Below are positions 18,001 through 27,000 of a DNA stretch of 42,058 bases, one piece after another. The DNA lies in contig JAADFO010000020.1 in NCBI GenBank assembly GCA_013152815.1, forward strand, positions 1 to 42,058, in the 5' to 3' direction. The number at the start of each line of letters is the position of its first letter. The first letter of the stretch is position 1. The DNA comes from Nanobdellati archaeon (GTDB lineage Archaea; Nanobdellota; Nanobdellia; Woesearchaeales; JAADFO01). Position numbers: made by a program.

Positions 18001-21000
18001 TGTAGACCCTGCCGAAGTAGGGGATCTCCCGCTCATCCTCCATCAGAGTAAGGGTCTTCTTCTTGCACATGGGACAGGCCTGACCCTGGATGATATCTGG
18101 TGCGGACTCTTCTGCCATAGGTTGAATCCTGCAAAGCCAGTTATTTAAGGTTTTTGGTGAAGAGAAAAACAGGGAAGAGCATCCTGCGCTCACTGCGGCT
18201 GGAGACGTTTCCTGCTCAAGGCGACGAACAGCCCATAGGCCAGGGGAACGACGACGACGCTCCACCCGATGGCAAGAGCCCAGCCAGGATAGCCTTCATA
18301 GGGACCCTCCATCTCCTTGATGAACTGCATCACCAACAGGAGGATGAGGACTGCGGGGATGACATATCGTATCAGATGGTCCCACCATGCTCCCATCTTC
18401 CACCGGCTGACACTGTTGATGTACTCCCGAAGCCTTCGTGCACCATAGACCCAGCCGACGGCAATGGCCTCGAAAAGACCGACGAGCACCAGGCCGAAAT
18501 TGGTGACAAAATGGTCCACGATGTCAAGGAAATAGAGGCCGGCATGGGTGACGAACAATGTCCCGAAGACGAAGGCAGTGAGGCATACCCCGAAGGCTAT
18601 CTTCTTGGTGCTCATGTCCCTGAACCGGTCCTTGATGACCGTATCGACCGCTTCCACAAGCGAGAAAGCGCTGTCGATGCCCAGGCTCAACAGGGTCAGG
18701 AAAAAGAGGGCAGAGAACAGCCAGGAAAGAGGCATCAACGCCAAGGCCTGGGGAAAGACCACGAAGGCAAGGCCCGGCCCCGATGTCACCACATCACCCA
18801 CGCTGACTCCTGTGGTCGTCGCCATGTAACCCAGGACAGAAAAGACCACAAAGCCAGCGAAGAGGCTGATGCCTGAGTTGGTCAGGGCGGTGATCCACGC
18901 ATCGCCGGTGATGTTCTGGTCCTTGCGGTTGAAGGACGCGTAGGCGATCATGACACCAAAGCCAAGAGAAAGAGTGAAGAATATCTGTGACGCCGCAGCC
19001 AGCCATATCTCAGTGCTCATGAGAGCAGAGAAATCAGGCGTGATGTAGAACAGGATGCCTGACAAGGCACCGTCGAGGGTGATGCCCCTGATGAAGATGA
19101 CCAGCAAGAGGATGATGGGAAGAGGCATGGTCACGAGGACGACCTTGCCGACGCTCTTGACCCCTTTCCGGACAGAAAGGTAGATGAGGACCCAGACGAC
19201 CAACAGAGCCGCGAACAGTGTCCAGTTGATGCCGCCGACATCGCCGACGCTCCCTGAAATGTGGAGGATGTGATCGAAGAAATACCCCTTGGCATCTCCT
19301 GCCCAGGGCATCTTTGCCTGGAAGGAATTGAAAAAGAACACCAACGCCCAGGCCATGACCGCTGCATAGTAGACGACCACCACAAAGCCTGAGAAGATGG
19401 CCATGGTTCCTATGCCGCCGAGCCGATGATGGATGCTCCGGAAGGCGGCGACAGCACCTTTCTGGAGCTTCTGGCCGAGGGCGAACTCGAGGATCAGGAG
19501 AGGAACCCCCAAGATGAAGAGAGCGATGAGGTAAGGGACGAGGAAAGCCCCCCCGCCATACTTGTAGGCGAGATAGGGAAAACGCCAGACATTGCCCAGG
19601 CCGACAGCGCTGCCGATGGCAGCGAAAAGAAAGATCATACGGGAGGACCAACGGGCTCTCTGTTCCATCATAACACCTCTTTTATGCGGATAAGCACCAG
19701 ATCACAGGACCAGGTCATACGGATAGGCAGCAGGGAGGCAGACACTTTAAATAAGTTTTGGACATATGGACGCATCATCGAACATCCATCCAACCTCTGA
19801 CGAGCCTGTGCTGGTCCTTCACTCTCCTGACATATTCCTCGCCGAGCTCCTTCCGGAACCGGTCGATGACATAATCGATATCCTTCTCGACATCATAGGC
19901 GACAAGGTTGTCGGCGTAGGAGATGATGACCTCTTCCTTGGTCTGGGGCAAGAAGTCCTCTTTCGGCAGAGGCAACCCCTGCTTCTCGATGTCTTCCCGG
20001 GAGATGCCTACACCGATATGGGTCTCGCAGACCCGGGCATGGGCAGGAAGGCCTTCCTTGCGGAGCATCTTTCCGCCTTCGATACCATGCCTGATAGAAC
20101 CTTTTCCAGGAGGATAGCGGAAACGGCCGATGTCATGGAGCAGGGCAGCAGACCGCACAAAGTCCACATCGACTCCGGGACATTGCCTCGCGATCCTGAC
20201 AGCCACCTCCTTGACCGTCTGCACATGCCTGAGGAGGAGATCATAGCTGGCTTCGCTGGGTGCATGGCGACGGAGCAGGGCGAGTGCCTGCTGTTCAGAG
20301 AGCTTTTCCATGCCAAGCCCTTACTTCCCGGCAGTATATATGTATTTTGTATCATGGGCGTGCGTATCATAGACAAGGAAGAGCAGAGCCACAGCATCCA
20401 CTAGATTTATAAAGCCAAATAATATCTTGAAGGACAACAAGAAGAAAGAAAGCGACAAGAAAGCGTCAAGAAGAGAAAGGCAAGAAGCAAAAAAAAGAGG
20501 TCCTATGCCCTTGATGGAAACCTATCGCCAGACAAAGGCAGACTGGAAACGTTTTCTAGAAGCACTCATGAAAGGCAGGGAGCTCATAGCTCCGGTGAAG
20601 AGAGACCTCGTACGTTTCGAGCGGGTCAAGGACATCGAGGACATCCACCTGAAAAGCATGTCCTATTTCCCTGCAAAGCACTGGTTCTTCCCTGAAGAGC
20701 AGACCCTGTTCCGTTTCTCCAAGAAAGGCTTCGAGATGCCCAAGCAGAAAGAGCCTCGCAGGGTGTTCTTCGGACTACGGAAATGCGATCTCAACGCCAT
20801 CAAGCATCAGGACATGGTCTTCATCAAGCAGGCAAAGGATCCCTACTACAAAGCACTACGGAAAAAATCTTTGCTATTAGGATACCATTGCAGGACCGCG
20901 CCCTCGCCGTTCTGCTTCTGCGAATCGTTGGGATTGCCTGATTTCTTCGACCTTCTCTATTACGAGCGAAAGGATCATTTCGTGGTAGAGGTCGGGTCGG

Positions 21001-24000: not shown

Positions 24001-27000
24001 CATCGCCTTGCCCTCCCGGAACCCGTTCATCAACAACCTCTGCCAGGCCATCGAGATCGTCCATTGCATCGACCATGCCATCGACCTCTGCGCTACCATC
24101 ACCATCAAGCAGGAGAAGCCGAAGAAGGCAAGAGTCAGAGCAGGCAGGGGCGTAGGATGCATCGAAGTCCCCCGGGGGACGCTCTGGCACGATTATACGT
24201 TGGATGAGCAGGGCATCATCATCAACGCCAACATCATCACGCCGACGGCCCAGAACCTCCTCTCTGCCCAGGAGGACATCAGGACATTCGTCTCCGGCCA
24301 TCTGGACATGAAGAAAGACGAACTCATCATGGCTGTCGAGAAGCTCATCAGGGCCTATGACCCCTGCTTCTCCTGCTCTGCCCATTTCCTAGAGGTGAAA
24401 TGGGAGTGAAGAAGATGTATGTCTTCGGGAACGAGCACCTTCCGGAGGATGCCTTCGCGTTGAAGGTGGCGGACCACCTCCGTCTGCAGGGTGTCTCCAT
24501 CGTGCACTGCACGACCCCGGAGAGCCTGCTCGAGGCAGAGGAGGACGAGCTCATCATCCTCGACGTGGTCAAGGACCTCGCAGAACCTGCAGTGATAGAC
24601 CCGGACAGGATCAGGACCAACAGGATGATGTCTCTCCATGACCTTGATGTCGGGCATATCATCGAGCTCGGACAGGCCATGGGCATCATCAAAAAGCTTA
24701 AAATCATCGGGGTTCCCCAGAAAGGGAATCCGCAAAAAATCGCAGAACAGGTGAAGCAATGGATACCATGAAACAAAACAGTCTCCTGAAAAGGAACGGT
24801 CTGCTGCTGGTCAGTTTCACAGCGCTCATCTCAGGCATCTCCATCTTCGTCAACGGTTTCGGCGTGAAGGGCTTCGACAGCTCGGTGTTCACGTTCTCGA
24901 AGAACCTGATGGTGGCGCTCCTGCTTGCAGGCATCCTCCTGGGCTTCAGGGAATGGAAGCACATCAGGGAATTGACCGGAAAACAGTGGAGACAGCTGAG
25001 CATCGTCGGCCTGGTGGGCGGGAGCATACCGTTCCTGCTGTTCTTCAAAGGGCTGCAGATGACGACCGGAAAGACCTCAGGATTCATCCACAAGACCCTG
25101 TTCATCTATGCGACCATCCTGGCCATCATCTTCCTCAAAGAACGGTGGAACAGGAATCTTGTCCTGGGCATCACCGGCATCATGGCCGGCAACTACCTGC
25201 TCATCAGGCCTGACCTGACATTCAGCACAGGTCACATCCTTATCCTCCTGGCGACCCTTTTCTGGGCCGCGGAGAACGTCTACGCCAAGAAGGTGATGAG
25301 GGAACTGTCAGGCACGGTCGTCGGCTTCGGCAGGATGGCCTTCGGGAGCGCATTCATCTTCGTCTATCTTCTTGTCACAGGAAAGACAGAGACCATCGTC
25401 TCGATGAACGCCTCCCAGTACCTATGGATCCTGGTCACCTCGGCATTCCTGCTGCTCTATGTCTTCACCTACTACAACGGCCTGAGACAGGTACGGGTAA
25501 GCACAGCGACGGGCATCCTGGCCCTGGGCAGTCCCATCACGACCCTGCTCGCATTCCTGTTCACCGGAAAGGTCATCTCTGCCAGCGCGGCAGGCGGCAT
25601 GCTGCTCATCATCGTCGGTGTAGCCGCCATCGTCTGGGGAGTCCCACTCTCGACACTGAAGGACAGCCAGGGTGTGCAGGGTGTGGTGCATGGACGGAGC
25701 TGAACTCTGCATACGTTTTGCCTACATAACGAACAAGCTACGTTACTGCGGACCGGAGAAGGCACAGCCAGCATTCCATCGCTATCTGCTGCACCGAGAC
25801 AACCTTCCCGAGGTGCGGGAGGACATCAGACGCTTCGAAGGGCTCTATCCCTACCTTGATGCCATAGCGAAGAAGGCAGGGAAAGACTTCCTCGACAGGG
25901 AGGTGGTCGAAGCCTACTGGCTGGGCAATGGACTGCTCGACGGTTTTTCTGACGCAGAGATGAAGGACGTCATCAGGAGCCTGGAGGCGAGGGGACTGCC
26001 AGCCTCCATCGCCAGGAAACGCATCGATGAACTTCCGCAGGGGATGTTTCCCCACCATGACTTCAATGTCTTCTACGTCGGGGTGGGCAACATCACCCAG
26101 AGTGTGGAAGCTACCCTGCCGAACATGGACAACTGCAGGATCGGCTGGGGAAAGGTGGTCGAGGTGGTCTCCAAGGACACTGCCCTGGTGATGACCCCGG
26201 CCCTGCAGAAGAAAAAAGGGAAGATAGCGATGGGCAAAGAAGAGCCAAAGACCGTCGTGTTCCTGCCGGAGGTCACCTCGGTTGCAGAAGGCGACCTCGT
26301 CGCACTCCACTGGGGATTTATCGTGATGAGACTGAGCAGGGAGCAACAGTACCGGCTGCAGACATATCAAGAAAGGCTGCTGAGACAGCTAGGCGGACCA
26401 GGAAATCAGCCTGTGGCCTGACGGTAGAGCGCAAGAGCGTCCTCGGCCTCTTTTCGAGGGACCTTCTCGATGACAATACCGCCCTGGATGATGACATAGT
26501 CGTCCACAGCAAAACCGTCGGCGATGAGCTTTCCCGGGCGTCGTTCTGACCCGTAGTCGACGATGGCCATGTCCTTCTCTATCTTCACGATCCTCCCGGG
26601 CACAGCAAGGCACATCAGTCCTTCACCTCGACACTCTGGATCCTGATGTCTGTGCCCGAGATCAGGTCGGGCATGGACTTGCATTCCGGGCATTCGATGA
26701 GGAAGTGGTCGTGGCCCCGTTCGAGGATGGTGGGATGGCCGATGAACCCGCAGGAGCAGGTCGCCTTCGCCGGCACCTCGTGCCATTCGATACGCCAGGA
26801 CACCATCTTCCTGAGCGCTTCGACAAGGTCTTTGCCAGGGACATGGGCAAGCTCTCCTATCTCCAGATGGATGGCCTCGACGTCTCCGTATTTCCTGGCT
26901 TCCTTGATGATCTTCTCTGCGAAGGCTATCTCATGCATGCAGACACCAGAGGGAGCGGAGTTTATAAGAATTTCTGGAATCAGTTAAAAAAGCCAGTTAA

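Follow-up and report, generated by a model that had tools for sequence, protein, structure and literature searches.

How does a [NiFe] hydrogenase obtain its iron-cyanide-carbonyl group in a genome with HypA, HypC and a maturation protease but without HypD, HypE and HypF? According to a 2025 review, no [NiFe] hydrogenase acquires its cofactor without six Hyp proteins (PMC12134894). The question was raised by a 42,058-nucleotide stretch of the genome of a Woesearchaeales archaeon (contig JAADFO010000020.1; hereafter the window), for which an earlier note had proposed either an unknown pathway or supply by a host cell.

Results

The gene set that the earlier note had placed in the window, with its intact nickel-iron motifs, was borne out by coordinates and by direct reading of the sequence. 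Four hydrogenase genes lie on the + strand, encoding a HydB/AsrA-like Fe-S beta subunit (20505..21497; 330 aa, 15 Cys; Fer4_22 105 bits, sulfhyd_ShyB E 3e-52), a FAD/NAD(P) diaphorase gamma subunit (21478..22302; 274 aa; NAD_binding_1, DHODB_Fe-S_bind, sulfhyd_HydG E 6e-52), a small delta subunit (22299..23099; 266 aa, 13 Cys; Oxidored_q6, sulfhyd_ShyD E 1.5e-64) and a large alpha subunit (23135..24409; 424 aa; PF00374, sulfhyd_HydA E 1e-86). The alpha chain is colinear with PDB 9nez_D, from a sulfhydrogenase 1 of Pyrococcus type (alpha chain, E 1.8e-78), and carries C62/C65 (RICGIC), C411/C414 (DPCFSC), H417, a 7-residue C-terminal extension, and EGH, PRG and TPT motifs. With the Cys-x2-Cys pair, the terminal His, the cleavable extension and the beta, gamma and delta subunits all present, the enzyme is a group 3b [NiFe] hydrogenase by sequence, and its conserved pocket motifs would fit a putative NiFe(CN)2CO cofactor and H2 activity. 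It shares four subunits, their order and all active-site motifs with the group 3b sulfhydrogenases (Pyrococcus SHI, PDB 9nez; T. kodakarensis HyhL, 5yxy), but its subunits score under the equivalog cut-offs and its maturation genes are different.

The adjoining 123-aa gene (24400..24771, +), previously called a protease from its size and place, now has firmer grounds: HycI at 22.9 bits (cut-off 23.0), TIGR00072 at E 9e-7, and the Asp/His residues D17/D55/H80/D81 conserved in 42-43 of 43 homologues. HypC (26406..26612, -; 68 aa; PF01455 53 bits) has its N-terminal Cys, and the HypA nickel chaperone (26615..26938, -; 107 aa; PF01155 42 bits) lies beside it. The earlier inventory was correct in the genes that it listed but incomplete, as two genes within its own coordinates had been overlooked: an EamA/DMT-family transporter (24759..25703, +; PF00892 108 bits in two stretches, i.e. 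two EamA repeats) and a 243-aa DUF6390 protein (25690..26421, +; PF19927 150 bits).

The reported absence of HypD, HypE and HypF also held. In the source genome (G000; 90.8% complete, 76 contigs), HypD (PF01924) gave no match at E<=10, HypE gave only 37 and 24 bits (cut-off 252), and HypF gave only three separate domain matches of 24-37 bits (cut-off 466). HypE and HypF were above cut-off in none of the 44 HypD-less genomes tested, whereas HypE was found in 5/5 HypD-bearing controls and HypF in all five, three in full and two as C-terminal halves. The single-contig genomes G011 (100%) and G074 likewise have none of the three. HypB, left out of the earlier work, was now searched, and no HypB of GTPase type was found in the source genome; two ParA/Mrp-like matches were seen besides. 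The idea that the DUF6390 system goes with a loss of HypB was rejected, since the GTPase type is also absent from the HypD-bearing genomes G134 and G122 and HypB stands beside DUF6390 in 18/29 loci; the latter also indicates that DUF6390 is no stand-in for the nickel step.

The suggestion that such enzymes might be inactive relics was not borne out. HypD-less large subunits retain all cofactor-pocket motifs and are interspersed with HypD-matured ones on the tree, and an alignment of 12 HypD-matured and 88 other large subunits has no column that tells the two sets apart. The dN/dS values between G054 and G133 were 0.04 for alpha, 0.11 for the short DUF6390 and 0.15 for EamA. On these sequence grounds the large subunits, which are under purifying selection, cannot be told from HypD-matured ones and are no relics. 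The tree required 10 changes of label between HypD and HypD-less, at least 8 of them forced by branches with SH-aLRT>=95, and a single origin of the HypD-less enzymes was therefore rejected. Genome G168 carries both cassettes, each with its own group 3b copy.

Over 161 Woesearchaeales genomes we reproduced the earlier count, with the large subunit in 57 and HypD in 14, all of them among the 57, leaving 43 hydrogenase carriers without HypD. DUF6390 or its short homologue was found in 41 of these 43, and both DUF6390 and EamA were absent from all 14 HypD carriers, one of which retains a truncated relative. The exclusion recurred in Chloroflexota (251 genomes: DUF6390 24, HypD 120, overlap 0, expected 11.5) and in the Bacillota-labelled phylum of G207 (60 genomes: DUF6390 29, HypD 4, overlap 0 against 1.9 expected, which by itself is not significant), related genomes not being independent in these counts. 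Among further DUF6390 genomes, HypD was present in 1/50. The genomes are mostly MAGs, with closed genomes present in the G207 phylum sample and those reached via loci having no stated completeness, and the samples covered phyla other than Actinomycetota. The HypD-less DUF6390 module extends to Thermoplasmata, the G207 phylum and Chloroflexota of about 2-8 Mb (2.1-7.7 Mb), and its recurrence in free-living Chloroflexota means that a host is not required. In Chloroflexota, DUF6390 accompanies several hydrogenase groups (assigned from large-subunit motifs and neighbour Pfams), with HypA/HypB retained. DUF6390 can also accompany the genes that it seems to replace: the two matching plasmids (Sulfobacillus CP003180.1, Mycobacterium NZ_CP012886.2) both have it within a full hypF-C-D-E cluster, and in 2/80 metagenome loci it stands beside hypE or hypDEF. 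Replacement is therefore not its only role.

The DUF6390 protein comprises a helical N-domain, with Cys20 in a YCGP motif and His123 in PHH, and a HypC-like C-domain with Cys149 and His207; these four residues are invariant (225-228 of 228 DUF6390 sequences). In the structure model (pLDDT 94.8), residues 147-234 matched T. kodakarensis HypC 2z1c (Z 5.5, rmsd 2.0, 71 aligned) as the top of 48,161 entries, and the profile comparison with HypC gave P 95.5. The C-domain has an OB-type HypC fold and keeps the Cys and His of HypC, that Cys being internal rather than N-terminal. DUF6390 gave no PF01924 match at E<=10 and has only two invariant Cys, without the Fe-S cysteines of HypD; no Fe-S, nucleotide or redox cluster motif was seen. 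Foldseek found no match at E<=0.001 for the whole protein or the N-domain alone, and the N-domain model (VIA) returned small helical bundles (best Z 3.9) but not HypD. An Atlas search returned DUF6390 and HypC-like clusters only, including a 180-aa archaeal cluster that matches, at TM 0.70, a short, 160-aa form of DUF6390, in which the N-terminal Cys is out of register with Cys20. The predicted HypC-DUF6390 complex scored 0.50 (best control 0.00, partner pLDDT>=86, runs sharing >=81% of contacts), against a mark reached by 116/157 solved and 2/215 mismatched pairs, with 18/157 solved pairs and both mismatches reaching it at <=0.60. The model weakly supports the pairing, and its score may owe something to a resemblance to HypC complexes already solved.

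Transporters stand next to DUF6390 nearly always and are of three unrelated kinds. The EamA subfamily of the window was found at E<=1e-100 in 32/161 Woesearchaeales genomes, every one a HypD-less hydrogenase carrier; it is missing from 11/43 such carriers. EamA adjoins DUF6390 in 67/80 GTDB loci, and a transporter adjoins it in 17/20 Chloroflexota loci (EamA 8, family-5 ABC 6, Fbp-type ABC 6). Family-5 binding proteins adjoining DUF6390 share 41-62% identity across two phyla, and five HypD genomes had only matches of <=39%. Among solved structures, the ABC binding proteins come closest to NikA and to Fe3+/anion binders, so plain metal uptake would also fit; no solved relative of EamA was found. 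No enzyme recurs within the DUF6390 loci themselves.

The stand-alone HypC of the source genome has Gln where E. coli HypC has H51. Among Woesearchaeales HypC proteins, the conserved His was present in 0/30 HypD-less loci versus 5/5 HypD loci. As a universal marker, His loss was rejected, since the residue is retained in 12/64, 6/19 and 57/57 sequences of other sets.

Discussion

A transporter paired with a HypC-like protein, also in free-living microbes, points to a second, undescribed cofactor supply, perhaps by scavenging. We propose that DUF6390 serves as a scaffold in place of HypD. In E. coli the iron ligands are HypC C2/H51 and HypD C41 (PMC12134894, PMC11565642); DUF6390 offers the Cys and His within a HypC fold and, in a CG motif, another Cys; its N-domain has no clear structural match. 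The transporter would take up material shed by other microbes, either a ready-made cyano(-carbonyl) iron unit or a near precursor of it. DUF6390 would hold this unit through Cys20, His123, Cys149 and His207, so that a single chain takes the place of the iron site that HypC and HypD form, and the stand-alone HypC would accept it on its N-terminal Cys and hand it on to the large subunit in its apo form. HypA would then insert nickel and the protease close the site, both ordinary steps. HypC/HybG is known as a carrier that brings Fe(CN)2CO, bound at Cys2, to the apo large subunit (PMC8692609); the role proposed here is alike, but the donor would be DUF6390 instead of HypD, and the His is often lost. 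Maturation of a working group 3b hydrogenase by transporter, DUF6390 and HypC without HypD, HypE and HypF, most likely through salvage of a cyano-iron unit, is the reading that we favour, at about even odds. A form of Fe(CN)2CO that is both free and stable is not known from nature, which counts against salvage.

The exclusion between DUF6390 and HypD also fits synthesis de novo, in which DUF6390-HypC would itself build Fe(CN)2CO: iron would be imported, and the ligands would be either imported small molecules (cyanide, thiocyanate, CO) or products of unrecognised enzymes encoded elsewhere. Half of the G207 phylum has the module, a spread that a scarce cofactor obtained by salvage might be unable to support, and the source genome has carbamoyl-phosphate synthase and 17 radical-SAM matches. 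However, DUF6390 lacks a redox cluster motif, its loci lack a recurring enzyme, and the single-contig G011 has no CarB; we consider this route rather unlikely, though a serious contender. A HydG-like ligand source was rejected, as the HydG/ThiH-type BATS domain was found in 0/5 genomes. CarB, present in 2/5 genomes and absent from both HypD controls, makes carbamoyl phosphate supply uninformative. If instead the site had no cyanide and contained nickel alone or differently ligated iron, with DUF6390 a metal chaperone and the transporters importing Ni or Fe, the loss of HypE/F, the cyanide source, and the resemblance of neighbouring binding proteins to NikA and Fbp binders would be accounted for. 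Against this stand the unchanged pocket motifs without a class-specific column, the occurrence of either system among sister enzymes, the two group 3b copies of G168, and the need of HypD carriers for Ni too, with this EamA in 0/14 of them; such a site is improbable.

The earlier view that the iron group comes by another route is supported by the non-relic large subunits and the candidate route in the cluster, but its host-supply part is not needed. The module is often seen in DPANN and Patescibacteria, most of which depend on hosts (PMC8421398, PMC7304191), and borrowing may be a local source under the salvage model. As the only source, a cofactor or loaded HypC from an attached host is very improbable, given the retained HypC and the same module in Thermoplasmata, large-genomed Chloroflexota (2.1-7.7 Mb) and the G207 phylum. 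Least probable of all is an inactive relic, or hypDEF overlooked in incomplete assemblies: the incompleteness and 76 contigs of the source genome and the preponderance of MAGs would allow it, but G011 and G074 lack all three genes, assembly gaps would not give zero overlap with DUF6390, and the large subunit is under purifying selection.

Extending the salvage reading, we tentatively suggest, with a little less than even confidence, that many archaea and bacteria, soil carriers of group 1h-type clusters among them, have dropped the synthesis of Fe(CN)2CO or of a cyano-iron precursor, and that this compound is shared as a public good in the manner of vitamin B12. Dedicated importers would feed a DUF6390-HypC scaffold, and organisms with both systems would be facultative salvagers. 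Carriers without HypD (43/57 in Woesearchaeales; DUF6390-bearing, 24/251 in Chloroflexota and 29/60 in the G207 phylum) nearly all have one named substitute family. Salvage, new synthesis and an altered cofactor are each undescribed in the literature that we found, and can be tested with three small genes; the novelty is limited to the iron-unit step, as the enzyme, HypA and protease are ordinary. The result would assign DUF6390 a function and change the reading of hyp-less hydrogenases in MAGs. Some hydrogen oxidisers could turn out to be cofactor auxotrophs, which would be one reason why they resist cultivation, and the module might yield a three-gene tool for maturing [NiFe] enzymes.

In a search that most subscription literature lay outside, we found no published account of a HypD-less DUF6390/EamA/HypC module. 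The canonical Hyp pathway (E. coli, T. kodakarensis; PDB 3vyr, 2z1c) has in common with it HypC with an N-terminal Cys, HypA, the protease and the cleavable extension; here, however, HypD, HypE and HypF are absent, no [4Fe-4S] or ATP motif was seen, and a transporter is part of the module. The CPR hyd1/hyd2 group 3b hydrogenases (PMC7304191) share the clade context of the enzyme and have a partly HypC-like neighbour family, 'fam002', but the available parts of that paper do not address maturation, HypD/E/F, DUF6390 or a transporter, and its supplements other than file 2 (PDF) gave no match. The archaeal [FeFe] hydrogenases without HydEFG pose a parallel puzzle. The cofactor is another one, the BATS domain is absent here, and the part of the paper available names no candidate genes (PMC11216029), but there too the enzyme is retained, the maturases are missing and an alternative pathway has been proposed.

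A hydrogenase cluster with EamA and DUF6390 but no HypD, HypE or HypF

The cluster at 20505-26938 encodes group 3b beta, gamma, delta and alpha subunits and a protease, with hypA and hypC on the opposite strand, as the earlier note had described. The alpha subunit carries C62/C65 and C411/C414, then H417 and seven more residues at the C-terminus, and sulfhydrogenase 1 alpha aligns with it over its full length. The earlier gene list, correct for the hydrogenase, protease, hypC and hypA, overlooked an EamA transporter (24759-25703, +) and a DUF6390 gene (25690-26421, +; long form, 243 aa) between the protease and hypC. 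Searches of the source genome (90.8% complete, 76 contigs) again revealed no HypD, HypE or HypF, and no GTPase-type HypB. The observation of a hydrogenase without HypD, HypE and HypF is real and widespread; the reading attached to it, a cofactor obtained by an unknown route or from the host, was partly right.

Distribution in Woesearchaeales

The distribution claimed earlier was reproduced in an even draw of 161 genomes of the order, requested at ≥90% completeness: the large subunit was found in 57/161 and HypD in 14/161, all 14 inside the 57. One of the 43 HypD-less carriers (G086) is unpublished. Neither HypE nor HypF exceeded the cut-off in 44 HypD-less genomes (42 of the 43 carriers plus two more), and five of the 14 HypD-bearing genomes, used as controls, all had HypE, with HypF whole in three and half in two. 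DUF6390 in either form was present in 41/43 HypD-less carriers compared to 0/14 HypD carriers; the two carriers lacking it were G086 and G095 (gene on a 2.3-kb contig). The long form occurred in 24/161 genomes, 22 being hydrogenase carriers, and the full-length short form in 20/161, all carriers. The EamA subfamily (E ≤ 1e-100; profile built from 27 of its 32 genomes, the other 5 lying outside it) was detected in 32/161 genomes, all HypD-less carriers, and in 0/14 HypD carriers and 0/104 others. The stand-alone HypC of the order had lost its His in 30/30 HypD-less loci and kept it in 5/5 HypD loci.

Group 4-like hydrogenases at L037 (G051) and L048 (G132) had the short DUF6390 without HypD or this EamA subfamily. 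The HypD carrier G134 keeps a truncated 177-aa DUF6390 relative (L087:8249-8782), its N-terminal Cys motif gone, between the protease and hypF-E-D, possibly a cassette swap in progress. Only the C-terminal half of HypF was found in two HypD/HypE genomes, one of them single-contig (G016:C13:29285-30301; G122:C1:32398-33402), and G134 and G077 have hypDEF without a CarB match; here too the canonical supply of cyanide may differ.

Distribution beyond Woesearchaeales

The best 80 of 593 GTDB matches to DUF6390 included records from Thermoplasmata, Patescibacteria, Micrarchaeia, Iainarchaeum, Altiarchaeota, Chloroflexi, Dormiibacterota, one gammaproteobacterium and one Bacillota record; their loci contained EamA in 67/80, the large subunit in 54/80 and HypD/E/F in 0/80. 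Whole-genome searches of 50 genomes from these 80 matches detected HypD in 1/50, together with a second hydrogenase and its own hyp cluster. The Thermoplasmata genome G168 has two group 3b clusters (L117, L331), one with EamA-DUF6390 and the other with hypA-F-C-D-E, both containing frameshifts that are perhaps read errors.

In free-living Chloroflexota, sampled around a genome picked for DUF6390 and with related genomes that are not independent, DUF6390 was found in 24/251 and HypD in 120/251 (two unpublished, G236 and G367), with an overlap of 0 compared to 11.5 expected. HypE and HypF were absent from all five genomes searched of the 24. In 20 loci inspected, from 19 of the 24, DUF6390 adjoined group 3b enzymes, NifU/DUF5947/DUF6084 clusters, which we take to be group 1h-type, and other large subunits with intact motifs; 17/20 had a transporter, of three kinds: EamA, family-5 ABC and Fbp-type ABC. 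The ABC binding proteins neighbouring DUF6390 were nearest to NikA and iron/anion binders, and the adjacent family-5 ones formed cross-phylum subfamilies (41-62% identity), with no match above 39% in five HypD genomes. In a separate Bacillota-labelled phylum, DUF6390 occurred in 29/60 and HypD in 4/60 genomes with an overlap of 0 (p 0.065), and hypB adjoined DUF6390 in 18/29 loci.

Metagenomes gave 543 matches, and hypE or hypDEF lay in 2 of the top 80 loci; the 25 of these loci of at least 8 kb had neither, with 1h-type neighbours in 15 and a transporter in 13. HypC kept its His in 57/57 metagenome loci listed. In genome G388 (locus L218), two different hydrogenases stand in tandem, with a separate hypC and DUF6390 downstream of each. 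Eight records titled Methanosarcinales or Deltaproteobacteria (L097, L099, L102, L103, L105, L109, L135, L148) grouped with Woesearchaeal cassettes, and their taxon labels or bins may be wrong.

DUF6390 contains a HypC-like domain

The predicted model of DUF6390 (pLDDT 94.8) comprised a helical N-domain and a HypC-like C-domain. The top match of the C-domain among 48,161 chains was T. kodakarensis HypC (Z 5.5, rmsd 2.0, 71 aligned), and the N-domain searched alone gave no clear structural match. Profile comparison paired C149 with the first Cys of HypC and H207 with its conserved His. Across 228 long-form sequences, C20 (225/226), H123 (228/228), C149 (226/228) and H207 (227/227) were conserved. 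The short form, of about 160 aa and homologous to the long form (P 98), has an N-terminal Cys of its own, a His and the HypC-like domain. A predicted HypC-DUF6390 complex scored 0.50 compared to 0.00 for the best control, a range reached by 18/157 solved pairs and by both of the 2 mismatches that passed, out of 215; this faintly suggests that HypC might bind DUF6390.

Large subunits of HypD-less loci

The HypD-less large subunits are ordinary enzymes. The alignment had no column that set the large subunits of 12 HypD-associated group 3b enzymes apart from the 88 others. Of 105 rows, 87 went into a tree after removal of 15 near-redundant rows from Thermoplasmata and 3 duplicates; three of the eight oddly titled records are among them. 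On this tree the HypD label changed 10 times, at least 8 of them forced, yet was more clustered than in shuffles (mean 15.8); rows from named loci, including the Woesearchaeal sister of G134, were labelled by locus alone. Between G054 and G133, dN/dS was 0.04 for alpha, 0.11 for the short DUF6390, 0.15 for EamA and 0.22 for HypC. These results indicate that the cofactor is probably unchanged in DUF6390-associated enzymes and the two cassettes interchangeable.

Salvage and competing explanations

A literature search found no published description of a HypD-less EamA/DUF6390 hydrogenase module. PMC7304191 mentions that CPR group 3b enzymes have HypC-like neighbours, PMC8421398 lists a Woesearchaeal hydrogenase, and PMC11216029 raises a parallel case in [FeFe] hydrogenases. 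In the canonical pathway, according to PMC12134894, PMC11565642 and PMC8692609, Fe(CN)2CO is bound by HypC C2 (with H51) and HypD C41, its cyanide comes from HypE/F, and HypC then passes Fe(CN)2CO on to the apo large subunit. The HypD-less module, in contrast, lacks the synthetic half, retains the delivery half, and adds a putative importer of variable type and a short Cys/His protein that contains a HypC domain.

The importer and DUF6390 would salvage the iron cofactor unit, and the retained delivery steps would follow; beyond gene content, each of these steps is one that we infer. Salvage fits the module's anatomy best because the synthesis genes are gone, delivery is kept, the HypC-domain protein and importer are added, and no enzyme recurs in DUF6390 loci; we give it about an even chance. 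New synthesis of the cofactor would fit the same exclusion of HypD and DUF6390, has the want of a recurring enzyme against it, and seems distinctly less probable. Both plasmid matches (Sulfobacillus CP003180.1 and Mycobacterium NZ_CP012886.2; the genome samples did not extend to Actinomycetota) place DUF6390 inside full hypFCDE clusters without EamA, which counts against DUF6390 as a pure replacement of HypD/E/F, as do the His kept in metagenome HypC and the likeness of the ABC neighbours to NikA and iron/anion binders; under salvage, such co-occurrence is explained as a facultative route. An altered cofactor, against which the uniform alignment columns speak, is improbable. Contact with a host as sole source would suit a symbiont, and beside the Chloroflexota loci it appears very unlikely; a relic or artefact, set against the intact motifs and low dN/dS, is the least credible reading.

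The same contig also carries Fe-S supply genes (sufB, sufD and a SufS-like class-V aminotransferase; 35872-39699, -), a surface-polysaccharide cluster (2555-16778) in which ORFs of 586, 614 and 491 aa lack a Pfam match, and an intergenic short tandem repeat (about 30480-30565), a five-residue unit of which appears about six times in spurious ORFs.
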